Source: Alphaproteobacteria bacterium (GTDB lineage Bacteria; Pseudomonadota; Alphaproteobacteria; RF32; CAG-239). From it: a stretch of 64,000 bases of DNA. The stretch spans positions 4,462 to 68,461 of the forward strand of contig JAFUSA010000005.1 of assembly GCA_017480745.1 (NCBI GenBank), given 5' to 3'. The position numbers were made by a program, and so were the translations under genes. The notes below the pieces were generated by a model. It was not told where the DNA came from. It saw only the letters and a program-made list of their open reading frames with translations, and made no database searches. How positions within the stretch are numbered: position 1 is the stretch's first letter; each line of letters opens with the position of its first letter. Positions 5,977 to 55,930 of this stretch are shown here, one piece after another.

Positions 5977-6242
5977 TTGACTTTTGCATTTTTTATGATA
6001 TAGTGAGGGAAGAACTTCGGTTCGGAGCTTTGACAAGCTCTTGCTAAGTTAGGTGTTTTAGGACACCGTAGTAAAGATATAATGAATATCTCCGATGTGG
6101 TCGGGGAGCCTGTGATGGATGTTCAGGGCTTCTGCCTAAAGATTACAGGAATCGTTTAACTTAGCATGATTTGTCAACTCTCCGATCGCCGTTTGGCGGT
6201 CTGTTTTTTTTAATAAACAACTTTAACAGAGGAGATAAAATT
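5977..6242 (+). promoter_or_regulatory. Promoter plus type B structured leader of pilin-like gene P1
   Basis: TTGACT (5977-5982), 16 nt, then TGaTATAGT (5996-6004). The leader has GAAC-UUCG-GUUC (6012-6023). A long-range pairing joins GCUAAGUUA (6043-6051) to UAACUUAGC (6157-6165). The box GUCAACUCUCC (6173-6183) precedes the hairpin GAUCGCC-GUUU-GGCGGUC (6184-6201), which is followed by a T8 run. Confidence 0.7.
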
Positions 6243-6893
6243 ATGAAAAATTTTGAAATTAAAAATGAGTCCGGCAGAAGTATGATAGAAATGTTAGGCG
6301 TGCTTGCCATCATTGGTGTTTTGAGTGTTGGCGGAATCGCCGGATACAGCAAGGCGATGACTAAATATAGAATCAACAAAACCATTGAACAAATAACTCT
6401 TATTGCCGGTAATGTGCGTGCGTTCTTTGCTCCGCAACACAATTATGATGGACTTGACAGCTGCTCTGATGATAACTCTTATTGCAAATTAATCAGAAAA
6501 GCCAAACTAATACCGGATGAAATGTGGGATGATACTTATAAAAGATTTAAAAATGTGTTTGGGTATAGGGTTGATTTAATGACGAAAAATAGGTCTACTG
6601 ATGGCGACAAGCAGGCATTTGATATTTATTACTCTATAGGAGATAATATGGAAACCTGTATAGAATTGTTAAGTTACGACTGGCGTATGTCTGGTGCGCA
6701 AGCTATTCAAATCGGTGGTCCCGCGGGGGCTGTTAATTTTAAACTTCCCGTTGCCGTAGATAAAGCTGTTGAGGCATGTTCGGAAACTATCAGTAAAAAC
6801 CGGATGTATGGAGGATCCTTTCCTGATATGCTTTTTTTCTTTGATATAAATTTAAACAGCACATATTGGAGTTCTTTGACTTGGGCAAATTAG
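6243..6893 (+). CDS. Type IV pilin-like protein P1 (class III signal peptide)
   Basis: MKNFEIKNESG|RSMIEMLGVLAIIGVLSVGGIAGYSKAM. Gly at -1, Glu at +5, then a hydrophobic helix. ATG at 6243 follows GAGGAGA. The ORF-track extension to 6171 runs through the leader RNA. Confidence 0.85.
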   Translation: MKNFEIKNESGRSMIEMLGVLAIIGVLSVGGIAGYSKAMTKYRINKTIEQITLIAGNVRAFFAPQHNYDGLDSCSDDNSYCKLIRKAKLIPDEMWDDTYKRFKNVFGYRVDLMTKNRSTDGDKQAFDIYYSIGDNMETCIELLSYDWRMSGAQAIQIGGPAGAVNFKLPVAVDKAVEACSETISKNRMYGGSFPDMLFFFDINLNSTYWSSLTWAN

Positions 6894-6954
6894 TCTGCTT
6901 ACCAATCTGCCGGCGCCCTCACAAGCGCCGGCAGGAGGATGATTCGGCTTTGCG

Positions 6955-9900
6955 TTAAGCAACCTTCATCAAACGGGTTTCGTTAGTCCAAAGAATATAC
7001 GATTCGACTCGCCATTCCTGATATATCTGTTTTATTAACTCGGCATAAAGCATTAATTGCGTTTTATACGCCGGCGGAGTATGTTCCAAATCAGCTGCTG
7101 CTTCGCGATTAGTTTTAAAATCCACAATTATTACCCGATGTTCCTCCGGCAAAGTTATCAAACGGTCAATTTGCGCAGAAATTATTTTATCCCCTACTCT
7201 ACCGATAATCGGAACTTCGGCTTGAGAATGTTCGCCGAACAGCCAGTCAAAGTGCACACTGTTGATTAAATTAAGCACTTCGTGTTTAATTTCCGCCTGT
7301 TTATTCGCACTAAAATCCCCGGCATTGCGATGCAGATATTCATCAATCAAGGCCTGATAATCATTTGCTTGTGGCGGCAAAAATTGCAACAACTTATGAA
7401 TAAGTGTGCCGCGCCGATAATAAACTGCATCATCTTTGAGTGGAGAAGCTGAATCCACGTCGTCTTCATCAACCAATTTTGATGGTGTGTATGGCTTTCC
7501 TAAACCGTTTTCATTTTCGGCTTCAACAAACATCCAATTTTCAAAATCAGCCTGTTCTTCGGCAGAAGAATTGTTTTTATCTTGTTTTTTCGGTAAAATA
7601 TCCGGTGTTTCATATACTAATCCGATGTTTTCTTCGGCAACGCCAAAATCCTTAAAGCCGTTATAACACAGTGAATACCACGAATTTTCATCTATATCAT
7701 TGCTATTGCTGTATCCGCAAACAATTAAAGTATCTTCGGCACGTGTTAACGCCACATAAAGCAACCGTCGATATTCTTCCAATTCTGCTTCTTTTATTTT
7801 TTGCAAAATATTTTCGCAACAGTCTTCATAACTATCCCCACACAACGGATAATATGCTAAATCGTTGTCTGTTAAAAACGCTTGCTTATGTTGCGGTTTA
7901 TGATATGAAACAGTATCAGGCAAAAATACCACAGGCGCTTGTAATCCTTTGGAATGGTGAGCGGTCATCAACCGAACAGCATCGTTGTCCGCATCCTCTC
8001 CTTCACGTTTTATTTCCACATCACTTTGCCCCATCCAAGCCAAAAAACCTTGCATATTGGGAATTTGCGTTTGCTCATAAATTAAAGCTTGATTCATAAA
8101 TTCATCCAACGCATCTTCAACCTCAACTCCCATACGGGCAATAAACTTTTTGCGTCCGTCTTGCTCTCGCAAAACACGAGTATATAATTCGTATGGACGA
8201 ATATAATCTAAATCATCAAACAAATCTTTTAGCTGTTTTGTAACGTTATTTTCGTATTTTTTCGTCTCTTGTAAACATGTCCAAAGTAATTTATTGCCGC
8301 GCCCGAAGCATAAGTCTTCCAATTCGGCATCGGTTAATCCAAACAAAGGAGATTTAAGCACCTCAGCCAAAGATAAATCATCTTGTGGCAATAATAAAAA
8401 CTTGCCCAAAGATAGTAAATCTTGCACAACAATTTGCTTTGATAAAACAATAACATCAGCACCGGCAATGTTAACATTTTCTTTTTTGCAAGCACGAATA
8501 AAATCTGTTACAAAATCATTTCGTTTACGCACCAAAATCATAAAATCACGATAGTGCAATGGATGTGCGGTATGAGCACTTTTATCAACCATTGTGCGGA
8601 TTGTGGCGGCCATTTTTTGGGCCAACTTCGTGCGCACAGATACACGTTGCGTCATTTCCATAGGAGGCAACCACTCTTTATCATTTACAACTTTATCATC
8701 TTTTTGTGCAACCATCAGAGGCCAAATTTCCACCCGTCCAAACTGACCGGCACGCACCGGAACATGGTTAACTTTTTCGCCGGCAGAAACTACTCCGTCA
8801 GCAACATTATTTTTGGCAAACAGATGATTCACCGTTTCCAAAACCGCCGGTGCCGAACGAAATGAATTATGTAAATTCACACGAGCAAATTTATCTTTGG
8901 CCTTAGTGGCAAAATAAGATGCCATTTCATCAAATTTATGCGGATCCGCTCCTTGAAAACTATAAATAGATTGTTTGCGATCTCCCACCACAAAAATGGT
9001 GCGATCTTGTTCCTTTTGTCCGTCACCGGCAAAAAATTCCTCGCTCAAGCTCTTAACTATTTGCCACTGTTCGGGCGATGTATCTTGCGCCTCATCAACC
9101 AAAATATGGTTAATTCCCCCGTCTAATTTAAACAAAACCCACGAAGATGTTGCTGAATCTGACAACAAATCAACGGTCAAACGAATTAAATCACTATAAT
9201 CAAGTTTGGCGCTTTTCTGCTTATACTCTTCGAACCGGTTGTTAAGCTCCTGTGCGATGGTAAAAAAAGCTTTTGTAGAATTATATAAATTTAAATTTAT
9301 CAGTGTTCTTTCCAATTCTAAAACATCTTCGGCATCTTTAATTAAATTTTCCAAAGTCTGCGGATTTTTTTCGGCATTTTTTTTGGTAATCAAAGAGCTG
9401 TCAGCCCGACGTTCCCCTTCTTTTGTTAAAAACAAGTTGCGGTATTCTTCATAAGTTTCGCCTCGCAAACCGTGAGATAAAACCTCTTCCATTGCTTTCA
9501 TTTTTTTCTGATCATTTGTTGAACCACCGGATAGCACTTCCATATATTGTGCTAATTTATGCGCACTTACCTTTTGCATAAAATCGGCTTTTAAATCCTC
9601 GGCAGTATATATTGGATTAACACTTAATTTTTTTTGCAAATCTTGTAAAAAATTATCAATCCCGTTATGCTTAACCAAAATCTCGGCAATTTTGTAACGA
9701 TTTTTCGTTACGTCTTCAATCATATTTTCAAAAGGTTCTTCCTTCATCTCCCTCGTCAAATATCTTATAGCATCACCAACGGGGGCGCTATTATGCTTAC
9801 TCAGTAAATTTGTTTGAATACTCTCCAAAATATCAGACGATTCACGATCATTCATAATTTCAAAATAAGGAGAAATACCTGCTTCAAGAGGAAAACGTTT

Positions 9901-10344
9901 TAAGATATTCTGGCAAAAACTGTGAATAGTCTGAATCTTCAAGCCACCGGGTGTATCAAGCAAACAAGCAAATAATGTGCGAGCCTTATTTCTGAATTGA
10001 TGCAATTTATCGGCAGAATCGGCTTCGCTTCCCAATATATTGAGCAAAGATTCTTCCAATTTTTCTTCCGGCATAACCGCCCATTCACTCAAACGCTTTG
10101 AAATGCGTGTATTCATCTCTGCCGCTGCTGCTTTGGTATATGTTAAACACAAAATCTGTTCAGGTCTAACATTGTGCAATAACAACTGCAAAACTCTATC
10201 AGACAGCACTTTTGTTTTTCCGGTACCGGCAGAAGCCTCTACCCATACCGAAGTATGTGGATTTGCGGCCTTGCGCTGCTCTTCTGTTGCATTTTTTTTG
10301 CGCGCTTCCACCTCATTTTTATAATCTTCAATTACCTTAATCAT
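6955..10344 (-). CDS. addA: Double-strand break repair helicase-nuclease AddA
   Basis: 1129 aa. UvrD-type helicase motifs (ASAGTGKT, DEAQDTSP) and a C-terminal nuclease motif (IIVDFKTN). Lies directly downstream of addB. Confidence 0.85.
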   Translation of the reverse strand: MIKVIEDYKNEVEARKKNATEEQRKAANPHTSVWVEASAGTGKTKVLSDRVLQLLLHNVRPEQILCLTYTKAAAAEMNTRISKRLSEWAVMPEEKLEESLLNILGSEADSADKLHQFRNKARTLFACLLDTPGGLKIQTIHSFCQNILKRFPLEAGISPYFEIMNDRESSDILESIQTNLLSKHNSAPVGDAIRYLTREMKEEPFENMIEDVTKNRYKIAEILVKHNGIDNFLQDLQKKLSVNPIYTAEDLKADFMQKVSAHKLAQYMEVLSGGSTNDQKKMKAMEEVLSHGLRGETYEEYRNLFLTKEGERRADSSLITKKNAEKNPQTLENLIKDAEDVLELERTLINLNLYNSTKAFFTIAQELNNRFEEYKQKSAKLDYSDLIRLTVDLLSDSATSSWVLFKLDGGINHILVDEAQDTSPEQWQIVKSLSEEFFAGDGQKEQDRTIFVVGDRKQSIYSFQGADPHKFDEMASYFATKAKDKFARVNLHNSFRSAPAVLETVNHLFAKNNVADGVVSAGEKVNHVPVRAGQFGRVEIWPLMVAQKDDKVVNDKEWLPPMEMTQRVSVRTKLAQKMAATIRTMVDKSAHTAHPLHYRDFMILVRKRNDFVTDFIRACKKENVNIAGADVIVLSKQIVVQDLLSLGKFLLLPQDDLSLAEVLKSPLFGLTDAELEDLCFGRGNKLLWTCLQETKKYENNVTKQLKDLFDDLDYIRPYELYTRVLREQDGRKKFIARMGVEVEDALDEFMNQALIYEQTQIPNMQGFLAWMGQSDVEIKREGEDADNDAVRLMTAHHSKGLQAPVVFLPDTVSYHKPQHKQAFLTDNDLAYYPLCGDSYEDCCENILQKIKEAELEEYRRLLYVALTRAEDTLIVCGYSNSNDIDENSWYSLCYNGFKDFGVAEENIGLVYETPDILPKKQDKNNSSAEEQADFENWMFVEAENENGLGKPYTPSKLVDEDDVDSASPLKDDAVYYRRGTLIHKLLQFLPPQANDYQALIDEYLHRNAGDFSANKQAEIKHEVLNLINSVHFDWLFGEHSQAEVPIIGRVGDKIISAQIDRLITLPEEHRVIIVDFKTNREAAADLEHTPPAYKTQLMLYAELIKQIYQEWRVESYILWTNETRLMKVA

Positions 10345-10361
10345 CAGCGGTTCCTCAAATC

Positions 10362-13271
10362 TTACTGTTCATCATCTTTAACAGACCACTCTAAAAGTCG
10401 CGACAAGTGTTCATAATTGCTACTATATTTACTACTACTGTTTTGGGTTAAATACGGACGATTCGGATTATCAAATTCCGTTATTAATTCACGTAAAATA
10501 CCGTCTATTTTTTCTGCTGCCTGTTGTGTTTGTTCAAAATCAGTATAATTTTCAGCCTTATCCTTAAAACCCCAATAGCGCAAACTATTAACTTTTCGAG
10601 CTCTAATACCCTCAAAACCGCCTTTCTCCGCTATCAAACCTTCTATCGGTAGCTGAGGAGCCGTGCCGGCAACCATTTCTTTGCTACTGCGCATTTTTCC
10701 GGTTTTGTAATCAATAATATTGATAAATCCGTCTTTTGTTTCATCCACACGATCAGCTTTGGCTGTTATTTGAAAATTGCCGGCCGGAGCAATATAGTTA
10801 ATACAACCGGTTATTTCGTTATGAATCTCGCTGATATTTTGACGATATGAAGTTTCTACATCTACCAACCAGTTTATGATATTAATGTAGCGTGGCCACC
10901 AAAATGCCATAACATCTAAGGATATACCGGAATCGGCAAAGAATTTTTCTCCTAATTCAGAAAGCTCTCGACGTGCCAATCCGGCTTCCGGAAATTGACT
11001 TTTATACTTATCATTGAAAGTCTGTAAAATCTCATGCACAATGTTACCAAAATCAACACTTAATTTTTCACCATCTAAATCATCAAGAGGATATAAAGAC
11101 AAAACATATTTTGCATAAATGACATACGGATCGCGCATTAAATTTTCCACATTATTTGCCGATAATTTGCGCGGCCGGCGAGAAACAACAGGCTTAGGCA
11201 TCGGGGCCGATAAGGCGGCCATTTTTTCTCGGCGGTCAAGCATTTTTGCCCAATATGCAAACTTATTATCATAAATAAAGTTGAATTTTTTTACATTTTG
11301 CTCCTTATCACTATCATCAGTGGCAAAATTTGCTTCCAAAACAGTTTCCAAACGTAACCACCAACGCGACTTGTTTGCCGGAGCTCCATCAGCCTTTTGT
11401 GCACGCGTTAAATAAACCTCAGGTGCTTGCAACAGATTGGCAAAATCTGCCGCCGCAACACCAATACTGCGTTCCGGCAGAGGTAAGCCGAATTGTTGTT
11501 TCATCGGGCGAGACATCCACATATCGGCTTCCGGTAACTTTGGCCATACACCCTCGTTTACTTCGCCCAAAACAGTAACATCAAAACGACATAAACGCGC
11601 TTCAATAGGTCCCAAAATTTTGATACGTCTGTGAGCTCCGTATCTGTTGCGCACATTTTTTTCACTCAGCAATAAATTTAAAAATCCGCTGTAATCATTG
11701 GTTTGAATAATATCGAGTCCATCACCTTTCATCAATAAATCACTAACAAAATCTGCGGCAACCTTACCGGCATCCTTGCGCCAAATTATTTGTCCTCCTT
11801 TTTTGATATCAGTATTTGCCAGATTTTCCGCCGCTTTTATGTGAGCTTTAAAAATATCTATAAACTTTACACGTGGTTGCAAATACAAATCTTTCAGCTC
11901 CGCAAATGAGTGCCAAAAACTCTCTAATAACAGTTCGGAATCCGGATTTAATTTTTTTTGTTTACGCCATGCCAGCTCAATTTGGTGCACCATCTTATTA
12001 AATTGACTACGCTCATAACCACATGCGGTAAACGGATGTTTTAATAAAGCAATAACCGACGTTTGAGTATTTTGCTCCAACACATCAATTATCAGCCTTA
12101 AATAAATTCCGAGTGGAGTTAAATTAAGCGGTTGACCGGCAGAATCATCTGCATAAATATTCCATTTTTTCAATTCGGCCACCACTCGACGAGATAAATT
12201 TCTATCCAACGTTACCAAGGCCGCCGTTTTATCTTTTTCTTCCATCGTTCTTCGCAAAATCAAAGCTATCGCCTGCGCCTCTTGTCGCACATCATCGGTT
12301 GTAACTAAGTGAATATGCTTAAAAGCGTTCTCTGATAAACTGTTAACACCCAAATTTCGCCAATCGGCAGAAGAAGATGACGGACGCATTATTTCTGAAA
12401 CGGCTTTTTCTTTTTCGCTTATTTTTTCATCGGGCAAATTAACAACCGCAAAACGAGAAATCTCTAAACTTTCCAACAATTCTTTCAGTTCAAACTGGGG
12501 ATGATTTTCATCGATATTTTGCCACGATTTATCATCCAAATAAGTATCTAAACCATATAAATACAGCTCACCTTGCGGCAAATTAATTACACACTCGGCC
12601 AATTCTTTCAAATACGGAAAAGCAGCCGTTGTTCCGCACAAAATAACCGGTTTAGCCATATTTAATTTTTTCCACAAAGCCATTTCTGCGCGCAACAAAT
12701 TTTTACGCCGATCCGCTAAATCTATCATCCCCTTTTCTGCCAAAATATGTGGCCAATGAGATGTAATTATTTGCAATAACAACAAAGTTTGCTGCCAATG
12801 ATCAGAATATTCCTCAGGAACCAAATTTTTTAAATCTTCAGTATTTAATTCTTCATTTTTTATCAAATCAAGCAATTTGCCAAGACTTTTAGCCAACGCA
12901 TATGCTTGTGCTAATGACACCTGTTTAAGACCAAATCGACTACCTTGCATAATCAAGCGTGTAAAAATAAAAATGCGCTCATCGTTGCTTATGGCCGGAC
13001 TAAGCGCCGACAATATATCAGATGCCGATGTTAAATAAACTTCTTCGTCATCTAAATCAGCCACCGGAGCAATGCGCGGTAAGATTATCGGAGATAAACC
13101 GCTTTGTCGCACAAAAGCTTCCGTTAAATTTTGACACGCACGACGATTGGGCATCAAAAACAAAACATCCGCCAATTTTTGCGGATTTTCACTATACCTT
13201 TCAATAAAACGCTCGGCCAAAACATCCACAAAAGATTGTGTGGCCCTTATATTATAAACTTTGTTCGTCAC
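10362..13271 (-). CDS. addB: Double-strand break repair protein AddB
   Basis: About 970 aa with C-terminal PD-(D/E)XK-like ADRVDE..IIDYKTG. I prefer the GTG at 13271 (AGGAG 5 nt upstream) over the TTG at 13286, which overlaps the rdgB stop. Confidence 0.8.
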   Translation of the reverse strand: MTNKVYNIRATQSFVDVLAERFIERYSENPQKLADVLFLMPNRRACQNLTEAFVRQSGLSPIILPRIAPVADLDDEEVYLTSASDILSALSPAISNDERIFIFTRLIMQGSRFGLKQVSLAQAYALAKSLGKLLDLIKNEELNTEDLKNLVPEEYSDHWQQTLLLLQIITSHWPHILAEKGMIDLADRRKNLLRAEMALWKKLNMAKPVILCGTTAAFPYLKELAECVINLPQGELYLYGLDTYLDDKSWQNIDENHPQFELKELLESLEISRFAVVNLPDEKISEKEKAVSEIMRPSSSSADWRNLGVNSLSENAFKHIHLVTTDDVRQEAQAIALILRRTMEEKDKTAALVTLDRNLSRRVVAELKKWNIYADDSAGQPLNLTPLGIYLRLIIDVLEQNTQTSVIALLKHPFTACGYERSQFNKMVHQIELAWRKQKKLNPDSELLLESFWHSFAELKDLYLQPRVKFIDIFKAHIKAAENLANTDIKKGGQIIWRKDAGKVAADFVSDLLMKGDGLDIIQTNDYSGFLNLLLSEKNVRNRYGAHRRIKILGPIEARLCRFDVTVLGEVNEGVWPKLPEADMWMSRPMKQQFGLPLPERSIGVAAADFANLLQAPEVYLTRAQKADGAPANKSRWWLRLETVLEANFATDDSDKEQNVKKFNFIYDNKFAYWAKMLDRREKMAALSAPMPKPVVSRRPRKLSANNVENLMRDPYVIYAKYVLSLYPLDDLDGEKLSVDFGNIVHEILQTFNDKYKSQFPEAGLARRELSELGEKFFADSGISLDVMAFWWPRYINIINWLVDVETSYRQNISEIHNEITGCINYIAPAGNFQITAKADRVDETKDGFINIIDYKTGKMRSSKEMVAGTAPQLPIEGLIAEKGGFEGIRARKVNSLRYWGFKDKAENYTDFEQTQQAAEKIDGILRELITEFDNPNRPYLTQNSSSKYSSNYEHLSRLLEWSVKDDEQ

Positions 13272-13282
13272 TTTGGCTCCTG

Positions 13283-13879: not shown

Positions 13880-13881
13880 TA

Positions 13882-14592: not shown

Positions 14593-14594
14593 AC

Positions 14595-15152: not shown

Positions 15153-15243
15153 TTTTATCTTTTTTTGTTTTTAACTATTGACCTTAGTATATAACCTTGT
15201 TAATATATAATCAATATCTTTTTAACAACTTATGAGGAAAATT

Positions 15244-15411: not shown

Positions 15412-15413
15412 TT

Positions 15414-16343
15414 ATGCTCGGCCGGCAAATAGAGTTATTTTTACAAATGATGGCGGCGGAAAAAGGCGCCGCACAGAATTCTATTGCGGCATACGAACGT
15501 GATTTAGAGCAATTTTTGCAATTTAACAACTTGGGATTAAAAGATTCTATCCATAAAGCCGATATTGAAAATTTTTTGCAAGACTTGCATACAAGAGGAT
15601 TCACACCCAAAACTATTGCTCGTAAACTATCTGCCGTACGTGAATTTTGCAAATTTTTATATTCGGAAAAAATAATTGCCGATAACCCCGCATCAAATAT
15701 CACGGCACCCAAACAAGAAAAACCTTTGCCTAAATTTTTAAGCATTGAAGAAATCAAAGACTTAATAAACACGGCAAATCAAAGCAATGACTATCGCATA
15801 AGGCGAATAGCCGTAATGATTGAGCTGATGTATGCAACCGGTTTGCGTGTTTCTGAACTGGTCGGGCTTCCCAATAACGCCGTAAACAATGAAAAAGGAT
15901 TAATTACGGTGCTTGGCAAAGGCAGTAAAGAAAGAATCATACCAATAGCCGAACACACACAAATGATTTTAGCACAATATAAAGAAGTTCGCCATGAATT
16001 TATTAAAAAAAACTCATCTTCACCTTGGCTTTTTCCTTCTGTTGTCGCTATGGACGGACATTTAACACGCGACGCTTTTTATAAAGATTTGAAAAAATTA
16101 GCCGCCGAATGCGGTATTTATCCATCACGGATCACGCCACACGTGTTAAGGCACTCGTTTGCCACACACTTAATCAATAATGATGCCGATTTACGCTCCG
16201 TGCAAAAGATGCTCGGACACGAAAGTATCGGAACAACAGAGATTTATACCCATATTTTTAAACAAAAACTTCTTAAAACCATACAACAAAAACATCCTCT
16301 TGGAAGTTTAGGTTGCAAAAAGGAAAAAGAAGATGAAGAATGA
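15414..16343 (+). CDS. xerD: Tyrosine recombinase XerD (XerC/D family)
   Basis: 309 aa. C-terminal RHSFATHL..LGHESIGTTEIYTH catalytic region. Divergent from aroK. Confidence 0.75.
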   Translation: MLGRQIELFLQMMAAEKGAAQNSIAAYERDLEQFLQFNNLGLKDSIHKADIENFLQDLHTRGFTPKTIARKLSAVREFCKFLYSEKIIADNPASNITAPKQEKPLPKFLSIEEIKDLINTANQSNDYRIRRIAVMIELMYATGLRVSELVGLPNNAVNNEKGLITVLGKGSKERIIPIAEHTQMILAQYKEVRHEFIKKNSSSPWLFPSVVAMDGHLTRDAFYKDLKKLAAECGIYPSRITPHVLRHSFATHLINNDADLRSVQKMLGHESIGTTEIYTHIFKQKLLKTIQQKHPLGSLGCKKEKEDEE

Positions 16344-17904: not shown

Positions 17905-17908
17905 TGCA

Positions 17909-25394: not shown

Positions 25395-25427
25395 TAAAAA
25401 ACTGCCGGCGCTTGTGAGGAGCGCCGG
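25395..25427 (-). terminator. Intrinsic terminator of pilin-like gene P2
   Basis: On the minus strand, CCGGCGCT-cctcaca-AGCGCCGG is followed by TTTTTT. The stem sequence is homologous to the hairpin after P1 (6907-6934). Confidence 0.7.
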
Positions 25428-32844: not shown

Positions 32845-32950
32845 TTATATTTTAAGAATAATCTCTCATACTTTTCATCATTTCATTCTCCTTTCCCGCC
32901 GCTCGATTTTTCGGGCGGCGGTTTTAATTTCCTTAACGTTCGCCTAATTA

Positions 32951-33610: not shown

Positions 33611-33852
33611 AGTAAACTTCCTTTCATTTAACTAAATCACTAATAAAAACGACACCGCCCGATAAAGGCGGCCGGAAGTTGACGACTATTTTAGCTTAAA
33701 TAGTGTTGCGTATTCGCATATAACCTATTCCGCAACCTTCCAGCCACAGCTGGATTTTTTACGCCCATAAGGCGAAGCTAAAAGAGGTCGTCAAACCCCA
33801 GACAAGTTACCTTATCTTGTCTTTACTATATCATAAAAAACTTAAAAGTCAA
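33611..33852 (-). promoter_or_regulatory. Promoter plus type A structured leader (P3 copy)
   Basis: Minus strand: TTGACT (33847-33852), TGaTATAGT (-10 at 33825-33830). H1 AGAUAAG-GUAA-CUUGUCU (33800-33817). Box (33672-33683). Hairpin CCGCC..GGCGG (33655-33671). SD (33615-33621). Confidence 0.75.
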
Positions 33853-42119: not shown

Positions 42120-42169
42120 ACTTATACTAAGAGAACTGCCGGCTAATTCAAGCCGGCAGTTTATCCGTA

Positions 42170-46047: not shown

Positions 46048-46134
46048 TGTAAATTCCTTTCTTTTTCTGCATAGAACCGCTTAGAGGATATCTTAAAAAA
46101 TTGTTGTTTGCAAGTATGCTGATAGTAGTATTCA

Positions 46135-48210: not shown

Positions 48211-48392
48211 TATTTTTTCGCCGGTTCCCATTTGCAACGAACAGGTGAAACAATGCTGCCCTCTTTCTTTAATTCGGCAAATGCCTTATCCACGGCTTTG
48301 CGGTCAAGTCCGGACATTTCAGCTACTTTACCGGCATTAACCGGCTCACCTGCTTTTTTCATTGTTTCTAAGACAATTTCTTTATCAGTCAT
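48210..48392 (-). CDS. Small winged-helix-like DNA-binding protein (60 aa)
   Basis: MTDKEIVLETMKKAGEPVNAGKVAEMSGLDRKAVDKAFAELKKEGSI resembles a minimal wHTH. Translationally coupled to the MarR gene. Confidence 0.4.
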   Translation of the reverse strand: MTDKEIVLETMKKAGEPVNAGKVAEMSGLDRKAVDKAFAELKKEGSIVSPVRCKWEPAKK

Positions 48393-48409
48393 AATTTTTT
48401 CCTAAAAAA

Positions 48410-48865
48410 TTAAAGCTGTTGCAAAATCCAGTTTTGCTCGCCGATGCACTCAATCAGTTCAAGCTGTTGCTCGCCCCAATACATATCTTCTTCTTCGTCT
48501 TTGTAATAGTCTTTAAGCAAGTCATAGGTTGTAACATCTTCTTCGGCATTTTTCAGCACACCTTTGAGCCATGCCAAACCGTCAACGGATACTTTCAGGT
48601 CATGTTTTACCCAATCAATCGGGTTTTCAAAAACTTCTCCTGCTTTTTTGGCTTCAAGTTTAACTTTACCGCCCAAATCCAAAATACGGTCAATACATTT
48701 TTCAACATAACCGCGTTCTTCGGTAGCGTGTTCGGCATATTTTTCAGCCAGTTTTGAAAAACCTTTAGCCGCAAAAATGCGTGACTGCACTAAATGTCCG
48801 TCCGCTTGTTGCGCTAAGTTTGTTACAATGAACTGTAAATCAGAAATAATCTTTTCGTTTGACAT
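48410..48865 (-). CDS. Ferritin-like (bacterioferritin-type four-helix bundle) protein
   Basis: 151 aa. Spacing of E..H and E..EE..H-like positions (AEHATEERGYVEKCIDRIL; DEEEDMYWGEQQLELI) is collinear with bacterioferritin as I recall it. Confidence 0.55.
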   Translation of the reverse strand: MSNEKIISDLQFIVTNLAQQADGHLVQSRIFAAKGFSKLAEKYAEHATEERGYVEKCIDRILDLGGKVKLEAKKAGEVFENPIDWVKHDLKVSVDGLAWLKGVLKNAEEDVTTYDLLKDYYKDEEEDMYWGEQQLELIECIGEQNWILQQL

Positions 48866-48990
48866 TTTATCCTCACTTTATTTAACAAATTGCACACAAT
48901 TTAATTGTATTCAATACCTTATTAGCAAAACATTTTATTTAAGTCAACGATTATAACGTGTATGTGTTAATTTTTTTTTGCAAAAATAGT

Positions 48991-49234
48991 TTGACATTTA
49001 AGTTTTTTATGGTATCATAAAAACAAGATGAGGTAACTTGTCTGGGGTGTCGAAACCTCTCAACTTTCGTCTGTTATGGACGTTAAATTTTCCAGCATGG
49101 CTGGAAGGTTGCAGAATAAGAATGAGTATCGAATATGCAACACTGTTTAAAGTTGACAGTTTCGAACTTCCGGCCACCTCATGAGGTGGTTAATTTTGTA
49201 ATGAAATAACTAATTTAATGAAAGGAAGTTTACT
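48991..49234 (+). promoter_or_regulatory. Promoter plus type A structured leader (P5 copy, reference copy)
   Basis: Promoter: TTGACA (48991-48996), 16 nt, then TGgTATCAT (49010-49018).
Helices: H1 49026-49043 (GUAA loop), H2 49044-49059, H3 49068-49082, H4 49090-49106, H5 49142-49160.
Platform: box AACUUCC 49165-49171, palindromic hairpin CCACCUCAUGAGGUGG 49174-49189 followed by a U-rich tract, SD GGAAGUU 49224-49230. Confidence 0.8.
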
Positions 49235-49930
49235 ATGAAAAACTTTGATACAAAAAATATTCAAATTAATTTTAATCAAGCGGAAGATGCCTTGACGATT
49301 CCTGCGGAATCGAGGCATGACCATAAGTGTGGCTCTACCACACAAAGCGGTCGCTCAATGATAGAAATGCTTGGCGTGTTAGCCATTATCGGTGTGTTAT
49401 CGGTGGGCGGCATCGCCGGATATTCAAAAGCCATGCAAAAATATCGCATCAACAAAACCATTGAACAAATAACTCTTATTGCCGGCAATGTGCGTGCATT
49501 TTTTGCTCCGCAAAGAAATTATGACGACTTATCAACCAATGTTATCAAAAAAGCCAAACTTGTACCCGATGAAATGTGGGATGGTGGAAGTGACACTAAT
49601 CCGGTTAACGCATTTGGAGGAAATTTTGTGTTTTCTGCTGAGAATTTAACATCTGCTTCCAATATATCGGGTTCTTTTGTTATTATGATTGATTCTATTC
49701 CGCAAGAAGCCTGTATTGAAATAGCCACTATGGATTGGCGCGCAGATTCCGGAAATTCTGTTGTTAATATTTCTGTTAACGGTACTATGGATGAAACATT
49801 AGCGCAATATACAGATAATTGCACAGACAGTGCTCACAATGTTTGTGCAAAAAATATGCCGATGGATATTGCAACGGCTTCAAATGCTTGCAGTTCAGAT
49901 GAAAATTTTATAGGTATTAAGTTCTATTAA
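49235..49930 (+). CDS. Type IV pilin-like protein P5
   Basis: A 39-aa leader peptide ending ..TTQSG|RSMIEMLGVLAIIGVLSVGGIAGYSKAM. Divergent C-terminal domain with KKAKLVPDEM and IPQEACIEI motifs shared with the family. Confidence 0.85.
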   Translation: MKNFDTKNIQINFNQAEDALTIPAESRHDHKCGSTTQSGRSMIEMLGVLAIIGVLSVGGIAGYSKAMQKYRINKTIEQITLIAGNVRAFFAPQRNYDDLSTNVIKKAKLVPDEMWDGGSDTNPVNAFGGNFVFSAENLTSASNISGSFVIMIDSIPQEACIEIATMDWRADSGNSVVNISVNGTMDETLAQYTDNCTDSAHNVCAKNMPMDIATASNACSSDENFIGIKFY

Positions 49931-49980
49931 AAAAATATAGCAAAACATATCGCCGATTCTTTGACGGAATCGGCGGTCGC

Positions 49981-50757: not shown

Positions 50758-51809
50758 TATAACACCTTACAAATACCGTTCAAAATATTAATTAACATAA
50801 CTCGTCTATCCATATTAATATTGACACAATCAGCGAAGTTTTTGCGTATTTCCTGCCAGCAAGCATATAATGCCTCGGCATCCTGACATTCGGCCATATT
50901 ATCCTTAATGAACTTCAACAATAACTCTTGCAACAAAGTAAATTTATCGTCATCGATCGCATTTTTATTGCAAAAATCCAACATTTTGGACAGAGAAAAA
51001 TTGCGCTTGGCATATAAAATAGCAGAAAGTTCGTTATAAATATCAACTGCTTCATAATCGGCGTAACGTATGGCTTTACCTATGCTTCCGTCGCTCATTT
51101 CTGCCAACTTCGCTACCATAGATTCGCTTAAATTTGAGCGATATCGCCGGAGCAAACTTGCAACTTCGTTTTTTTTGAGCGTATGCATCGGCAATTTTGC
51201 GCAACGCGAACGGATAGTCGGTAATAATGTACCGGCATTATGGCTGATTAACAGTAAAATTGTTTTGGCCGGAGGTTCTTCTAATATTTTCAACAAAGCA
51301 TTTGCCGCACTTTTGTTCATATCGTCAGCGCTATCAATAATTACTATTCGCCACCCGTCATTAAAAGACGTCTTGCTTAAAAAATCATTGATTTTACGTA
51401 CATCATCAATGCGTATAAACGCCGATTTTTTCAGGTTGGCAATTTCATTATCATCAAGCGGTTCTCCCTTGCGTATTGCCGAAATGATTTTACGTTTGTC
51501 CGTTTCAATATAATCCTTTTCCAACACTTTCAAATCAGGGTGCGAACCTCCGGCAATTTGTTGAAATATCTGAGAGTTTTCCGGAATGTTCAATGACGAA
51601 TAATTGTCTTTTTTATTTGTATCGGCCCAAAGCAAAAAACGGGCGATTCTATAAGCCAAGGTTGCTTTACCTATTCCCTGCGGGCCGCTTAAAATCCAAG
51701 CATGATGCAAGGTGTTGTTTTTCCATGCTTTTAAAAATATTTCTTCTGCCTCTGTTTGTCCTAACAAAAAACCGTTATTTTGCGGTAAAATATTTTCAAC
51801 TTCCGCCAT
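50757..51809 (-). CDS. holB: DNA polymerase III subunit delta'
   Basis: HAWILSGPQGIGKATLA, VVIIDSADDMN-like box (IVIIDSADDMNKSAANALLKILEEPP), SRC motif (TIRSRC). Confidence 0.8.
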   Translation of the reverse strand: MAEVENILPQNNGFLLGQTEAEEIFLKAWKNNTLHHAWILSGPQGIGKATLAYRIARFLLWADTNKKDNYSSLNIPENSQIFQQIAGGSHPDLKVLEKDYIETDKRKIISAIRKGEPLDDNEIANLKKSAFIRIDDVRKINDFLSKTSFNDGWRIVIIDSADDMNKSAANALLKILEEPPAKTILLLISHNAGTLLPTIRSRCAKLPMHTLKKNEVASLLRRYRSNLSESMVAKLAEMSDGSIGKAIRYADYEAVDIYNELSAILYAKRNFSLSKMLDFCNKNAIDDDKFTLLQELLLKFIKDNMAECQDAEALYACWQEIRKNFADCVNINMDRRVMLINILNGICKVL

Positions 51810-52453
51810 TAAACCCCCAGTCGTTCTTCTATAACCGCCACAATTTTTTTATGTAAATTTTCAATACTTGTATCGGCATCAAGCACTACACAGCGTTCCG
51901 GTTCTCGTTTGGCAATTTCTAAAAAGCCGTTTCTTAAATTATTATGAAATTCAAGTTTTTTGCTTTCAAAACGCAGTTCTTTAACCTCCATTTCTTCCGC
52001 TTTTGCATAAGAACGGCGCATTCCGATTATCGGATCTATATCCAAAATAATGGTTAAATCAGGTTTAAAATCTCCGGCAACTATTTTATATAAATTTTGC
52101 AAAATATCAAAATCAACCCGTTTATCATAACCATAGTATTGATAAGCTTCGGTTGAGTCTGCATATCTGTCAGAAATTACCCATTTTCCATCATTTAAGG
52201 TTGGCCACACAATTTTGGTTAAGTTACACCTTCTGTCAGCATAATAAAGCAGACATTCGCTAATAGCATCAAACTTGTCTTTATCACCCGTTACCAGCAG
52301 TTGACGTAAAACTTTTCCTTCTTCGGTACTTCCGGGTTCTTTGGTTAACACAACATCAATTTTTCGGGAATGTAGATACTGCGCTAATAATTTGATTTGT
52401 GTGGATTTACCGCAACCTTCTCCCCCTTCAAGAGTGATGAATTTTCCGCGCAT
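51809..52453 (-). CDS. tmk: Thymidylate kinase
   Basis: FITLEGGEGCGKSTQ P-loop. DRY motif (SDRYADS). Confidence 0.9.
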   Translation of the reverse strand: MRGKFITLEGGEGCGKSTQIKLLAQYLHSRKIDVVLTKEPGSTEEGKVLRQLLVTGDKDKFDAISECLLYYADRRCNLTKIVWPTLNDGKWVISDRYADSTEAYQYYGYDKRVDFDILQNLYKIVAGDFKPDLTIILDIDPIIGMRRSYAKAEEMEVKELRFESKKLEFHNNLRNGFLEIAKREPERCVVLDADTSIENLHKKIVAVIEERLGV

Positions 52454-53602
52454 TTATTTTGCTCCGAATACAAAATATTTTACATTAAACCACAAACGAC
52501 CTAACAATCCTACTTTACTTACGTTTTTATCGGCTACCAACGGAATTTCCAATGGATTTTGACCGTCTATTTCTATTTTTAGGGTGCCTATTTTTTGTCC
52601 GGCTTGCACCGGAGCGTTTATCGGTTGATCAAATTCCGCGGTTGCTTTGATTTTTTCAGTTTTGCTGAGATGGACGGTTTTCAAAACATCTTCGGCAACT
52701 GTTAAATCAACACTTTTTTCTGTTCCGTACCAAACATTTGCTGTGGCAATTTTTTGCCCTTTGCTGAAAATTTTATAGTTATTGAACTCTCTGAACCCCC
52801 AGCTCATCATTCGTTCGCTTTCTTCCGAACGTTCCTTATTGCTACTCATTCCGCTCATAACTTCAATTAATCGGCGATTCCCCTTTGTGGCAGAAGCGGC
52901 CAAACAAAATCCGGCTTCTTCGGTATGTCCGGTTTTCAATCCGTCAGCGCCTTTCATTGAATATAACAACGGATTGCGGTTACCTTGTTTGATATTATTA
53001 TATGTAAATTCTTTCTCACTGAAATAATGGTATAAATCCGGAAATTCCTTGATTATATGGCGTGAAAGAATTGCTAAATCTTCCATAGACATTTTTTGGT
53101 CAGGGTGCGGAAGTCCGGTAGAATTAGCAAAACTACTGTTTTTCAAACCTAAATTTTTAGCTGTTTTGTTCATCAATATGGCAAAATCTTCTTCTGAACC
53201 GGAAATATTTTCTGCCACAACAATGCATGCATCATTACCGGATTGAATAACAATACCTTTGATTATATTTTCCACCGTTACATTATCGCCGATGGATAAA
53301 AACATTGTGGAACCTCCGGTTGCCGCACCACCTTTACGCCAAGCATTTTCGCTAACCGAAAAAGTGTCATCAAGTTTAATACTGCCGTCTTTAATTTTGC
53401 TCATTAAAATGTAAACGGTCATCAATTTACTCATAGAAGCCGGAGGTACGCTTTCGGTTATATTTTTTTCAAACAAATATTCACCGGTATCAAAATCCAT
53501 CAAAATTGCATTACGCGCTGATGTTTCGTATGCCTGAGCTTGTATAACACAAGCCATCATACAGCCAAAAACCGCAACACTCAATCCGTTTAATTTCATC
53601 AT
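52454..53602 (-). CDS. dacC: D-alanyl-D-alanine carboxypeptidase (S11, PBP5/6-like)
   Basis: SMSKLMT (SxxK), QSGND (SxN), LKTGHT (KTG). Signal peptide. Confidence 0.88.
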   Translation of the reverse strand: MMKLNGLSVAVFGCMMACVIQAQAYETSARNAILMDFDTGEYLFEKNITESVPPASMSKLMTVYILMSKIKDGSIKLDDTFSVSENAWRKGGAATGGSTMFLSIGDNVTVENIIKGIVIQSGNDACIVVAENISGSEEDFAILMNKTAKNLGLKNSSFANSTGLPHPDQKMSMEDLAILSRHIIKEFPDLYHYFSEKEFTYNNIKQGNRNPLLYSMKGADGLKTGHTEEAGFCLAASATKGNRRLIEVMSGMSSNKERSEESERMMSWGFREFNNYKIFSKGQKIATANVWYGTEKSVDLTVAEDVLKTVHLSKTEKIKATAEFDQPINAPVQAGQKIGTLKIEIDGQNPLEIPLVADKNVSKVGLLGRLWFNVKYFVFGAK

Positions 53603-53608
53603 TCTCTC

Positions 53609-54727
53609 CTATTTTTTCTCAATTCTTGTGTCTTTTATACCATAATATTTAAGTTTGGCCTGTGCCACCATGGCTTCTTCCTTGCGATTATAGGGGCCAA
53701 CCGTTACACGATAATATTTTTTTCCGCCTACTTCTGTCGGCACAATGTGGCAACTGCCATATTCTTTAACGCGAATCATTTGTTTATGTGCCGCATCATA
53801 ACCGGAGAATGAACCTGCTATAATATAGTAGTATCCGCTTAAATATTGATATTCACCGGTTTTGACAGCTCGGGTATCTCCTTTTTTAGGATCAGTTGCG
53901 GCTTTGGCATAAATACCATTATTTTCATGCACCGGTTTGCCGGCCAAAGCGGTTGTTCCCATAGCCGCCGATTTTGCAACTCCGTCTTTTGTTGCAGCGC
54001 TACCATAAACAGCCGGCTCGACTGTTTGTCCGGTTGGTTTGTAAGACCCAAGCGCATATTTTTTATCGCCAACACTGGCATAAATCTCTGCCTGATCGGC
54101 CTTTATTGTTGCTTCGGAAATTTTAATTCTCTCTTCTGATGATTCATATAGCGAATGGGCAGGGGTTTGTGCGGCTAATTTAGAACTGTCGCCGGAAACT
54201 TTTCCTGTTAGCATGGCTTCTTTTAGCTCTTTGCTTTCTTTGGCCATAACTTCCACCTTAACTTTGGTTGTGCCTTGTCCTAAATAGCCCAAAAGTTGAG
54301 CTCCGCGTTTGGATAAGTCTATAATGCGATCTTTTACATAAGGGCCACGGTCATTAACACGCAAAACAATAGAGCGACCGTTTTGCAAATTAGTTACTTT
54401 AACAATGCTTGGTAGTGGTAATGTGCGGTGTGCTGCGGTTAAAGTATTCATATTATAACGTTCGCCGTTTGCCGTTGGTTTACCGTTAAAATCTTCACCA
54501 TACCATGATGCAATACCAACTTCGGAATAGGTATAATCCTCCTTCGGATAATACCATCTGCCGGCGATTTGATAAGGATTACCAACCTTATATATTCCGC
54601 CGTAATTCTTAATTATTTCCGCCTGTGCCTGTGGCGATAATCCGGCAAGTTCAGGCGTTCCCGTGGAACAAGAAGAAAGCAATCCGCAAGCCATGGCTGC
54701 AAAAATAAGTTTTTTTACACAGTTCAT
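53609..54727 (-). CDS. rlpA: Septal ring lytic transglycosylase RlpA family lipoprotein with SPOR domain
   Basis: Lipobox LLSSC. DPBB region GIASWYGEDFNGKPTANGERY..LRVNDRGPY. C-terminal SPOR-like YYIIAGSF....YRVTVGPY. Confidence 0.85.
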   Translation of the reverse strand: MNCVKKLIFAAMACGLLSSCSTGTPELAGLSPQAQAEIIKNYGGIYKVGNPYQIAGRWYYPKEDYTYSEVGIASWYGEDFNGKPTANGERYNMNTLTAAHRTLPLPSIVKVTNLQNGRSIVLRVNDRGPYVKDRIIDLSKRGAQLLGYLGQGTTKVKVEVMAKESKELKEAMLTGKVSGDSSKLAAQTPAHSLYESSEERIKISEATIKADQAEIYASVGDKKYALGSYKPTGQTVEPAVYGSAATKDGVAKSAAMGTTALAGKPVHENNGIYAKAATDPKKGDTRAVKTGEYQYLSGYYYIIAGSFSGYDAAHKQMIRVKEYGSCHIVPTEVGGKKYYRVTVGPYNRKEEAMVAQAKLKYYGIKDTRIEKK

Positions 54728-54919
54728 CTTTTTGTCATTATACCCTTAAAAATATTTTAACGCAGACTAACTTTTTTTTGACTTTACTGCAAGCATAATT
54801 AACAACTTATACCGTTCTTAATACATTATTAGAACATCCTGTTGTATCAACATAAATGAATAAGTTTACCTGATGAAATATTTTTTAATGTTAGTGTATG
54901 TTGAACCACAGGGACGCAA

Positions 54920-55585
54920 ATGACAGATATTTTCAAAAACAAAAGACCTAATTTTCAAAAACTTATGAAATTTGGTTTTGTGCGAAAAAATCAAGTTTAT
55001 ACGTTTAACACTCCAATGAATAACGCTCAATTTATTTTATCGGTTGAGGTGCAAGAAAACGGCAAAGTTTCAAGTAAAATAACCGATATTGATTTTGGGG
55101 AAGAGTATGTTTTGCATTTGGTTCCTGATGCGACAGGTGAATACATAGGTAAAATTCGCACAGAATATAATGATATTCTACAAAAAATTGCAGCGGAATG
55201 TTTTGATGTAGAGATTTTCAAAACATCGCAGGCAAAAGAAATTATTTGCTATGTGCGACAAAAATATGGTGATGAAGCTGAATATTTATGGCCAAAGTTT
55301 CCGAATAATGCAATATGGCGGCGCAAAGATAATAAAAAATGGTATGGTGTAATTTTGACCGTTTCGGCAAAAAAGTTCGGATTTGAGAGCAGCGAAAATT
55401 TAGAAGTTATAGATATTCGAGCAGATAAGGCGAATTTGGCAAATTTGATAGATAATCAAAAATATTTTGCCGGATATCATATGAATAAGGAACATTGGCT
55501 GACAATTTGTTTAAACAATTCTGTTACAACCGAAGAGATTATGCTTCGGATTGATGAAAGTTATCGACTTGCCGCAAAAAAATAA
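54920..55585 (+). CDS. MmcQ/YjbR family protein
   Basis: 221 aa. The C-terminal half (KWYGVILTV...GYHMNKEHWLTI) matches the YjbR-like fold signature as I recall it. Confidence 0.6.
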   Translation: MTDIFKNKRPNFQKLMKFGFVRKNQVYTFNTPMNNAQFILSVEVQENGKVSSKITDIDFGEEYVLHLVPDATGEYIGKIRTEYNDILQKIAAECFDVEIFKTSQAKEIICYVRQKYGDEAEYLWPKFPNNAIWRRKDNKKWYGVILTVSAKKFGFESSENLEVIDIRADKANLANLIDNQKYFAGYHMNKEHWLTICLNNSVTTEEIMLRIDESYRLAAKK

Positions 55586-55930
55586 GCGATCCGCTTACGT
55601 CTGTGGTGTCAAGACCTCTTTTACGTGCGCCGTTCGTGGCGTTAAAATATTTCCGACAATGGTCGGAAGGTTGTGGAATAAATGTGGATGAATACGCAAC
55701 ACTATTTAAGCTAAAATAGTCTTGAACTTCCGGCCGCCTTAGTGGGTGGAATTGCCGGATATTCGAAAGCAATGATGAAATATCGTATTAACAAAACCAT
55801 TGAACAAATCACTTTGATTGCCGGCAATATCCGCACCTTTTTTGCCCCGCAGAGGAGTTATGCAGATTTAAACAACAGCACTATTCTTAAAAAAGCAAAA
55901 CTTGTTCCTGAGGAAATGATAGAATTATAG
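55586..55930 (+). pseudogene. Decayed pilin-like locus: promoterless type A leader remnant fused to an internally and C-terminally truncated pilin ORF
   Basis: Residues 55586-55748 align with leader A from H2 onward (H3, H4, GAAUAA, H5, box, 5' arm of the hairpin). The sequence then jumps directly into codons for GIAGYSKAMMKYRINKTIEQITLIAGNIRTFFAPQ and stops at 55928-55930 after ..KKAKLVPEEMIEL. No SD, start codon, signal peptide or C-terminal domain remains. Confidence 0.8.

Follow-up and report, generated by a model that had tools for sequence, protein, structure and literature searches.

Pilin genes of the window and their copy number

The window analyzed here is a 64-kb stretch of contig JAFUSA010000005.1 (assembly GCA_017480745.1) from a metagenome-assembled genome (MAG) of an RF32/CAG-239-type alphaproteobacterium, and its subject is a family of type IV pilin-like genes that are scattered along the stretch, each with its own promoter and RNA leader. 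The 94-kb scaffold to which the window belongs derives from a ruminant gut metagenome (ENA ERZ28654966). The family members of the window include: (i) the prepilin genes P1 (6243..6893, + strand, 216 aa) and P5 (49235..49930, + strand, 231 aa), (ii) the prepilin genes P2 (25443..26219, 258 aa), P3 (32951..33610, 219 aa) and P4 (42170..42826, 218 aa), all on the - strand, and (iii) the pseudogene remnant R6 (55742..55930, + strand), which extends from about mature residue 19 to a KAKLVPEEM motif and has lost the signal peptide and the globular domain. Five intact genes and one remnant had been proposed in a first-pass annotation made from the letters alone, and five intact open reading frames (ORFs) with a truncated sixth are found at exactly those positions. 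Likewise, a tblastn search of the window with the shared 61-residue block recovers the same six places and no others, with E values of 1e-34 to 1e-36 for the intact copies. Overlooked in the first pass were an orphan leader at about 62420-62590, a promoter and leader that start at 63881, and the full extent to which the units converge with their neighbours (7 of 7, see below).

The family continues beyond the window on the same scaffold, with one copy before it (265 aa, just before the window start; L094:1-534) and two after it (228 aa past the 3' edge, then 246 aa a further 8 kb on; L099:8872-9558 and L099:956-1696), such that nine intact copies reside on the contig. P5 is 100% identical to the IJ525_00625 protein of the NCBI MAG 'Alphaproteobacteria bacterium', and 13 further paralogues with the IJ525 locus-tag prefix of this MAG are among the best matches listed. 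Thus, with nine copies on the contig and at least 13 further tagged paralogues, the MAG holds at least 22 full-length copies. The wider family amounts to more than 7,700 proteins at 90% clustering among the matches listed, to 1,511 clusters at 50% identity (E up to 1e-10) and, among GTDB species representatives, to more than 506 loci, several to a genome. The hosts are nearly all uncultured gut or rumen Alphaproteobacteria, including 'Proteobacteria bacterium CAG:495'. Contigs with family members are also noted in GTDB genomes named Lactobacillus sp., Bacteroidaceae, [Ruminococcus] gnavus or Eubacteriales (L038, L044, L054, L066, L078 and L080), where they are probably mis-binned.

Conserved and divergent parts of the pilins

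The block GRSMIEMLGVLAIIGVLSVGGIAGYSKAM.KYRINKTIEQ.TLIAGN.R.F, which the first-pass annotation had described as common to all copies, is present in every one of them. The five intact proteins are 46-57% identical overall and, between the Gly that precedes the predicted cleavage and about mature residue 57, identical or almost so. The C-terminal domains had been called hypervariable; their divergence stands, while the term can denote no more than an identity of 45-55% among paralogues. When 100 family members from public data are aligned, the short motifs noted early on in the divergent part (KAK..P.EM, EAC, DW and a C-terminal Cys) fall in columns that are invariant or conserved at 90% or more. 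Cys160 and Cys219 occur in every sequence of this alignment and fit the usual disulfide, and the dispersed copies have extra Cys-rich insertions as well as long leader peptides.

The codons of the block differ among copies, as was first pointed out for Arg-Ser at +1/+2, which is AGA AGT in P1, CGC TCA in P5 and CGT TCA in P2 and P4. Between copies, the 57-codon block is 76-85% identical in nucleotides, with Nei-Gojobori values for synonymous substitutions per site (dS) of 0.77-2.6. As these values are near saturation, the conserved block reflects purifying selection on the protein, which agrees with the original argument, and recent duplication or gene conversion is ruled out as its origin.

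Relationship to type IVb pilins

Pilins of the type IVb class have a long leader peptide, a variable residue other than Phe at +1 and a mature protein of about 180-200 aa. All five proteins of the window have the motif ..SG↓RSMIEMLGVLAIIGVLSVGGIAG (the arrow marks the predicted cleavage site), in which Gly is at -1 and Glu at +5, and a hydrophobic stretch, about 20 residues long, starts directly after the cleavage site. The leader peptides before the predicted cleavage, counting the Gly at -1, are 11 residues in P1 (cleaved at G11↓R) and P4, 22 in P3, 24 in P2 and 39 in P5 (38 without this Gly), and the mature proteins are 192-234 aa with Arg at +1. The long leader peptide, the non-Phe +1 residue and the large mature protein are those of the type IVb class.

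In searches with hidden Markov models (HMMs), all five proteins score above the curated cut-offs of PF05307 (Bundlin, 22.3 bits) and/or PF08805 (PilS, 22 bits). The scores are 36.8 bits (Bundlin) and 29.9 bits (PilS) for P1, 28.1 bits (Bundlin) for P2, 24.9 bits (PilS) and 24.8 bits (Bundlin) for P3, 26.9 bits (PilS) for P4, and 54.4 bits (PilS) and 45.1 bits (Bundlin) for P5. A profile of the family compared to the PDB matches BfpA (1zwt, E 1e-9) and the PilS of Salmonella Typhi (1q5f). The AlphaFold model of P5, which was made with 100 homologues, has a mean predicted local distance difference test (pLDDT) score of 80.5, with values above 90 over residues 57-231, the globular part. When this model is compared to the PDB by Foldseek, ranks 1-16 are all type IVb pilins (E 6e-9 to 3e-2), represented by CofA (9iuf/3s0t), TcpA (8uhf/1oqv/3hrv) and PilS (3fhu). 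Both lines of evidence had been suggested as checks on the initial designation of the proteins as type IV pilin-like, and both uphold it: the HMMs in all five proteins, and the structure prediction through the 16 best PDB matches of P5. On the basis of these profiles and the predicted fold, the five proteins are type IVb major-pilin homologues.

The family has much in common with BfpA (bundlin), the PilS proteins of Salmonella Typhi and plasmid R64, TcpA and CofA/LngA, all of them type IVb major pilins: the Pfam families, the predicted fold and a disulfide-forming Cys pair are shared, as are the long leader peptide, Glu at +5, a +1 residue other than Phe and a mature protein of about 190-235 aa. 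The family differs from solved type IVb pilins in that it is only 11-19% identical to them and has Arg at +1. The gene arrangement differs as well: known type IVb systems have one major pilin gene within an operon, whereas here at least 22 full-length paralogues occur one by one among housekeeping genes, each with its own promoter and RNA leader.

Transcription units

A promoter is predicted at each copy, P1 included. By an independent consensus scan, P2-P5 have a sigma-70 promoter about 240 nt 5' of the ATG that is near-perfect and in most cases has a TG extended -10, and an intrinsic leader terminator is called 30-60 nt 5' of the ATG of the same four genes. Terminators are called after the stop codons of P2, P3 and P5, and the GC-rich 3' hairpins of P1 and P4 are read by eye and not called. 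These promoters, leaders and terminators bear out the first-pass view that each copy is monocistronic and individually promoted and that each unit has a leader of its own, which is here recognized from the promoter, covariation and terminator calls as a structured RNA.

The leaders are of two types. Type A precedes P2-P5, and its instances are scored here in bits by the covariance model R1 (see below). The P5 promoter and leader (48991..49234, + strand; 161.6 bits) include a promoter at 48991-49018 that matches the consensus at 11 of 12 positions and has the TG extension, a leader terminator at 49172-49191 and the ribosome-binding site (RBS) AAGGAAG; the 3' terminator of this unit is at 49949..49977 (+ strand). 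The other three units are on the - strand. For P3, the promoter and leader (33611..33852; 142 bits) include a promoter at 33852-33825 with a TG extended -10 and a leader terminator at 33672-33654, and the 3' terminator (32896..32921) is a bidirectional hairpin. For P4 (42827..43066; 136 bits), the promoter is at 43066-43039 (11/12 consensus), the leader terminator is at 42889-42870, and the 3' hairpin CTGCCGGC-TTGAATTA-GCCGGCAG is at approximately 42135..42162. For P2 (26220..26457; 127 bits), the promoter is at 26457-26430, the leader terminator is at 26278-26260, and the terminator scan places the 3' terminator at 25405..25427. Type B precedes P1 (promoter and leader at 5964..6242, + strand), where an attenuator, GATCGCC-GTTT-GGCGGTC followed by a T-run, is just before the RBS; homologous type-B leaders precede other paralogues. 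The 3' hairpin of P1, CTGCCGGCGCC...GGCGCCGGCAG (6907..6934, + strand), is a probable terminator. A further promoter with the start of a type-B leader is at 63881..64000 (+ strand), and the gene it precedes is that of the 228-aa pilin just past the window end.

All seven units of the window, including the remnant and the orphan leader, are convergent with the downstream neighbour, which exceeds the first description of the copies as usually convergent. The neighbours are addA (6955-10344, - strand, after P1), a nitroreductase gene, a 148-aa ORF, a 155-aa ORF, tatD (after P5), a dnaJ-domain gene and rplI. As convergence in 7 of 7 units is unlikely by chance, it suggests that only insertions unable to read into the neighbour are tolerated. 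The homology between copies starts 10-15 nt before the -35 and stops at the stop codon.

The structured RNA leader

The aligned upstream regions have a conserved element of about 210 nt with compensatory changes. Covariance model R1, which was built from 15 leader sequences and searched against 1.4 Mb of loci, finds 33 instances of this element, in 25 of which the 3' end is 11-35 nt from the ATG of a downstream family pilin. Two alternative folds are supported. The ON structure consists of helices H2 and H3 and a closing helix of segment 2 with segment 3 around hairpins H5 and H6; in the alignment, which was fitted to this structure, 95.6% of cells are paired (37-47% in slid controls), 31 of 36 pairs are changed on both sides, and 175 cells have double changes (8-23 in slid controls). 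The OFF structure, to which the alignment was not fitted, consists of a pairing of segment 1 with segment 2 and the full terminator; here, 88.8% of cells of the OFF hairpin and 88.5% of those of the full terminator are paired, with double changes in 5/8 and 6/7 pairs, respectively. Because the terminator takes its 5' arm partly from the 3' strand of the closing helix, only one of the ON and OFF folds can form at a time.

A pseudoknot would arise from 7-10 uninterrupted Watson-Crick pairs between the H6 loop and the linker that follows H2. The pseudoknot strands are UCAACUUU/AAAGUUGA in the P5 leader, and the sequence varies in most intact copies (e.g., TCAACTTT/AAAGTTGA, TTTTAGCTT/AAGCTAAAA, TACATAG/CTATGTA and TCACGAT/ATCGTGA), and in most intact leaders the complementarity exceeds that of 98% or more of the shuffled controls. 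The minimum-free-energy fold of the P5 leader is the OFF structure (segment 1:2 hairpin and terminator; energy z = -3.66), and in its centroid AACUUCC is paired to the RBS GGAAGUU. The RBS is GGAAG in 22 of 26 leader-linked pilin genes. The type-B leaders, which precede P1 and other paralogues of the same MAG, are a diverged subtype with the same logic, and an alifold consensus of four has compensatory changes in 22 of 62 pairs. With 33 instances, a pseudoknot and two covarying alternative folds, the leader is a well-supported, previously undescribed structured RNA. In the literature, no earlier description of this leader, or of a pilin expansion in RF32/CAG-239-type Alphaproteobacteria, was found.

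Two units are in decay. The R6 leader (55582..55741, + strand; 110 bits) retains most of the element but has a deleted -10, a broken pseudoknot and a terminator 5' arm that is fused to coding sequence; the deletion joins this arm to mature codon ~19 across the microhomology GGGCGG(T/A)A. The orphan unit (62420..62590, + strand; 77 bits) has a promoter and leader but lacks a pilin gene; it breaks off shortly upstream of segment 3 and the terminator, at ...TTTCGAAC, after which the bidirectional terminator of rplI follows. The pseudoknot complementarity is lost in both decayed leaders. Thus, from the R6 remnant and the orphan leader, the pilin family turns over by gain and loss of copies.

The leader is distinct from the RNA families with which it was compared. 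At gathering scores, Rfam 15 finds only tRNAs in the window, and permissive scans of five leaders (E up to 10) find no match to a c-di-GMP (cyclic di-GMP) or other riboswitch. The c-di-GMP riboswitch was considered from the precedent of Clostridioides difficile pilA1, which is preceded by the c-di-GMP-II riboswitch Cdi-2-4, the ligand-bound fold of which permits read-through (PMC6200980), and was set aside for lack of an Rfam match. Cdi-2-4 is likewise a structured 5' untranslated region (UTR) with an intrinsic terminator before a type IV major pilin gene and is, by analogy, the nearest precedent for how the leader may act; by contrast, the leader described here differs in architecture, is repeated at many paralogous pilin genes and does not match the c-di-GMP model. 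Full-length sub-threshold matches to sRNA-Xcc1 (RF02221) occur in the three-way-junction part of the leader, at 29.4 bits for P5 (49099-49183, + strand) and 28.4 bits for P4 (42878-42958, - strand), with E values of 0.002-0.005. The shapes are alike, in that both have a 9-bp closing helix around two hairpins, then CCACC, and sRNA-Xcc1 is found upstream of symE in Xanthomonas integron cassettes (bioRxiv 10.1101/2025.06.18.660453). Membership in sRNA-Xcc1 is nonetheless rejected, since the scores reach roughly half of the gathering score (53 bits) and P3, P1 and the best-scoring relative (L059) have no match. A leader-peptide attenuator is rejected as well, as the mini-ORF of hairpin 1 (ATG-AGG-TAA) is not conserved, being ATA in P3 and missing in other groups.

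Operon-encoded pilins of relatives (see below) are without the leader, and many dispersed pilins of other lineages have different upstream arrangements. Some of the leaderless dispersed pilins have a promoter palindrome, TATGACTAAAGTCATA or TATTACTAAAGTAATA (L025, L047, L055, L013 and L076, at about 9700-10000), and in one genome two copies of a palindromic hairpin, ATGTCCGAAAAAAGG..CCTTTTTTCGGACAT, are at pilin genes (L014 and L016, at about 9750-10000), one of which abuts the RBS. These palindromes seem to be other ways of regulating the one gene family.

Assembly machinery

No pilus assembly genes are found among the Pfam-annotated genes of the window or the 10 kb on either side, where only housekeeping genes are noted, including addAB, ATP synthase, dnaA-dnaN-recF and ribosomal proteins; the first-pass annotation had reached the same result for the 64 kb. 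In relatives, pilins with the same N-terminus, GRSMVEMLGVLAIIGVLSVGGIAGYSKAM, are encoded in an operon (L064, L089/90, L096 and L100-102). The order of this operon is a 456-577 aa protein, TcpQ (PF10671), secretin (PF00263), an R64-type PilO (PF06864), a 441-512 aa protein, a T2SSE ATPase of about 556 aa, a T2SSF platform protein, a 194-222 aa pilin-like protein, two to three family pilins and, usually, a PilT-like ATPase of about 320 aa. The operon partners (TcpQ, secretin, PilO, two ATPases and a platform protein) are the same as in type IVb systems. The same ATPase, which is 80-95% identical across seven species, adjoins family pilins in six more genomes, and type IVb machinery is found with same-family pilins in at least 10 related genomes. 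One relative also has a Peptidase_A24 gene (L066:13352-14077, 59 bits), at a distance of 3 kb from family pilins. Thus, judging from the operon and the peptidase gene of relatives, the type IVb machine served by this pilin family is complete in the lineage.

In contigs with an identical ATPase, three operon pilins are present in one sample (L089:13497-15512) and two in another (L091:6757-8051), which is copy-number variation inside the operon. The operon is always beside one or two genes for TrbC-like proteins (VirB2-type pilins) and a gene for a 1444-1501 aa protein without a Pfam match, on either side of the operon (L089:1-2877, L096:1-2888 and L100:13129-18052). The opposite flank is a conserved run of PRTase, AhpC, VWA, PP2C phosphatase, Ser/Thr kinase and NMO genes.

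Proposed mechanism and alternatives

The preferred and likely explanation is a lineage-specific expansion of type IVb major-pilin genes, by which a repertoire of complete, individually regulated paralogues is provided to one machine, with the leader as the switch. The prepilins would be processed, probably by a prepilin peptidase at G↓R, and then assembled. The first ~55 mature residues are predicted to form the alpha1 helix, the part that would have to match three partners, namely the peptidase, the platform protein and the filament core. As alpha1 must fit all three, it would be held constant, and every paralogue would be compatible with a single type IVb machine, proposed to be encoded elsewhere in the genome and to consist of TcpQ, secretin, PilO, an extension ATPase, a platform protein and a PilT-like ATPase. 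The surface-exposed globular domain would be free to diverge. The dispersed genes are interpreted as alternative major subunits, interchangeable or co-polymerising, with surfaces that could set them apart in adhesion specificity, in antigenicity or as phage receptors.

The leader is proposed to combine transcription attenuation with translational masking and to be OFF by default. In the OFF state, segments 1 and 2 would be paired, the intrinsic terminator would form before the RBS, and the free segment 3 (AACUUCC) could pair with the RBS (GGAAGUU). In the ON state, the pairing of segments 2 and 3 would close the three-way junction, which would be locked to the 5' domain by the pseudoknot; part of the 5' arm of the terminator would thereby be removed and read-through would follow. 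Some ligand, protein or condition may shift the balance by stabilizing the pseudoknotted junction. The copy-specific pseudoknot sequences could, if this mechanism is true, add copy-specific control. That the leader represents a new ligand-sensing (riboswitch-type) or factor-dependent antiterminator class that gates more than 20 interchangeable type IVb major pilins is a tentative proposal and the more doubtful part of the interpretation.

Several observations weigh against the expansion of switchable major pilins. At the protein level, the generic N-methylation HMM PF07963 scores only 14.3-17.9 bits in the five proteins (cut-off 21.2), TIGR02532 scores 12.5-16.5 bits (cut-off 16.3, which P3 and P4 reach while the others are just below), and Arg at +1 is unusual for a pilin. 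At the RNA level, the covariation counts for the ON structure come from the alignment fitted to it, and of 129 family genes in the loci surveyed just 37 have the leader, which is thus not essential to the pilin family. Furthermore, since all leaders of one type are alike, they would respond together and not select one pilin, which weakens the case for one-at-a-time variation. At the level of the machine, neither the assembly operon nor the peptidase was found in the window's own MAG, and dciA is in the window where a relative carries the operon beside xerD-like and AAA_18 genes. The expectation that assembly genes lie elsewhere is borne out for relatives, by the operon and the prepilin peptidase, but the operon is not located in this MAG. 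The 120 matches listed for the ATPase, at 83-98% identity to the query, include none assignable to the MAG, and a search with the 451-aa operon protein gave no IJ525 tag in the best 120 of 425 matches; both listings were taken up by sequences closer to the queries. Operon candidates P0171, P0229 and P0461 trace to other samples, and the surroundings of two further IJ525 paralogues have only housekeeping neighbours.

The alternatives differ in which part of this explanation they replace. The dispersed proteins could be minor or tip pilins, or displayed or secreted pilin-like proteins, each adding a specific adhesin to a filament made of operon pilins. The operons of relatives hold two to three family pilins and the 194-222 aa pilin-like gene, which could suffice as major subunits, and the Cys-rich insertions and long leader peptides of the dispersed copies would suit such a role; however, dispersed and operon pilins have the same full alpha1 helix and the same major-pilin fold class, known type IVb minor pilins (TcpB, CofB and PilV) are much larger with extra domains, and the near-consensus promoters suggest high expression, such that a minor-subunit role is possible at a low probability. 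A more radical replacement would sever any link to type IV pili and take the proteins for ordinary signal-anchored membrane proteins or for pseudopilins of type II secretion. The borderline N-methylation HMMs and a window without assembly genes would be compatible with this, but it is contradicted by the present data and has next to no likelihood: the globular domain matches the Bundlin/PilS HMMs and has the predicted type IVb pilin fold, and the operons of relatives pair the family with TcpQ and an R64-type PilO, not with GspC-M.

Regulation by switched transcription of complete genes is likewise open to two other explanations. In Neisseria pilE/pilS and the R64 PilV shufflon, alternative C-terminal parts are joined to a constant N-terminal part, and the copies of the window could be a donor reservoir for recombination into an expression locus, as in antigenic variation of the pilE/pilS type. 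This idea draws on the large number of paralogues that are conserved in the 5' part and vary in the 3' part, on the pilins at the operon of relatives that could occupy an expression locus, and on one strain (L004) with altered gene order at the 5' edge of the P5 unit. Those systems, though, use silent partial cassettes, in which the promoter, the start codon and the N-terminal coding part are missing, together with RecA and a G-quadruplex (G4) element, or invertible C-terminal segments between sfx repeats together with the adjacent Rci recombinase, whereas here each copy is a complete ORF with a start, a leader peptide, an RBS, a strong promoter and, mostly, a recognizable 3' terminator. Each copy is at a separate locus with no alternative 3' segments adjoining, and the sole integrase-family gene (15414-16343) has an xerD-like housekeeping context. 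As every copy is complete with its own promoter, the copies are not silent cassettes; the conserved block, with dS values of 0.8-2.6, has not been homogenized by conversion, and the per-copy compensatory changes that keep the leader structure imply that each copy is transcribed. Donor recombination is contradicted by the complete, separately promoted genes and the high dS and is very improbable, and the first-pass view that the arrangement differs from pilE/pilS holds. The other explanation concerns the leader, which could be a constitutive structural 5' UTR with a role in stability or processing, or else a separate small RNA gene that stops at its own terminator, the pilin being expressed only by leaky read-through. 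Consistent with a non-sensing RNA are the lack of an Rfam riboswitch match and of an identified ligand or binding protein, the orphan leader without a downstream gene and the thermodynamic preference for the terminated fold. On the other side, both of the mutually exclusive pairings of segment 2 covary, which is the signature of a switch, the motif is 11-35 nt from a pilin ATG in 25 of 33 instances, and the pseudoknot is gone from the orphan and the remnant, both apparently decayed. A non-sensing leader is therefore given a small probability only.

Significance of a dispersed pilin repertoire

Most knowledge of type IVb pili comes from enteric pathogens and IncI plasmids, in which a single operon-encoded major pilin varies by alleles or a shufflon. 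The family described here is a different arrangement in widespread, uncultured commensals of the gut and rumen, in which dozens of pilin genes are spread over a small chromosome and extreme purifying selection on the whole of alpha1 would keep the dispersed pilins compatible with one machine. The leader is a concrete candidate for a new riboswitch or antiterminator class that controls adhesion genes. If it does belong to such a class and gates the pilin repertoire, the pilus surface is varied or tuned by the conditional transcription of complete paralogues and not by DNA rearrangement.

The closest functional analogue is the PilA1-PilA6 set of Haloferax volcanii. These archaeal pilins are not co-regulated with the biosynthesis genes, have an almost completely conserved hydrophobic N-terminal domain, and can each be the major pilin of one machine, each with different adhesion (PMC4371748). 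The Haloferax set differs in that it is archaeal, depends on the PibD peptidase, has six genes and not dozens, is conserved only in the H-domain and not over the whole alpha1, has no structured RNA leader described, and has no sequence relationship to the present family. Were the paralogues alternative major subunits, they would be a bacterial counterpart of PilA1-6 on a much larger scale, with a bearing on how commensals diversify their surface against IgA, phages and changing substrates.

Genomic setting

The stretch that is dense in pilin genes adjoins a probable replication origin, as indicated by dnaA, dnaN and recF in the window (58562-62400). Dispersal of the units by a mobile element is not supported, as no flanking inverted or direct repeats and no transposase genes are seen. 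A stem, CTGCCGGC...GCCGGCAG, is common to the 3' hairpins of P1, P2 and P4 and to a hairpin at 5933-5960, after the gene upstream of P1; it may be a terminator type that is common in this genome, or it may point to a common origin of the unit ends. In another sample (L004:1-2600), an identical P5 with its leader and tatD is preceded by an enolase gene and a TPR gene, and the corresponding upstream part of the window (48400-49235) has a ferritin gene. Thus, with enolase and TPR genes upstream in one sample and ferritin in the other, a breakpoint in gene order coincides with the 5' edge of the P5 unit.

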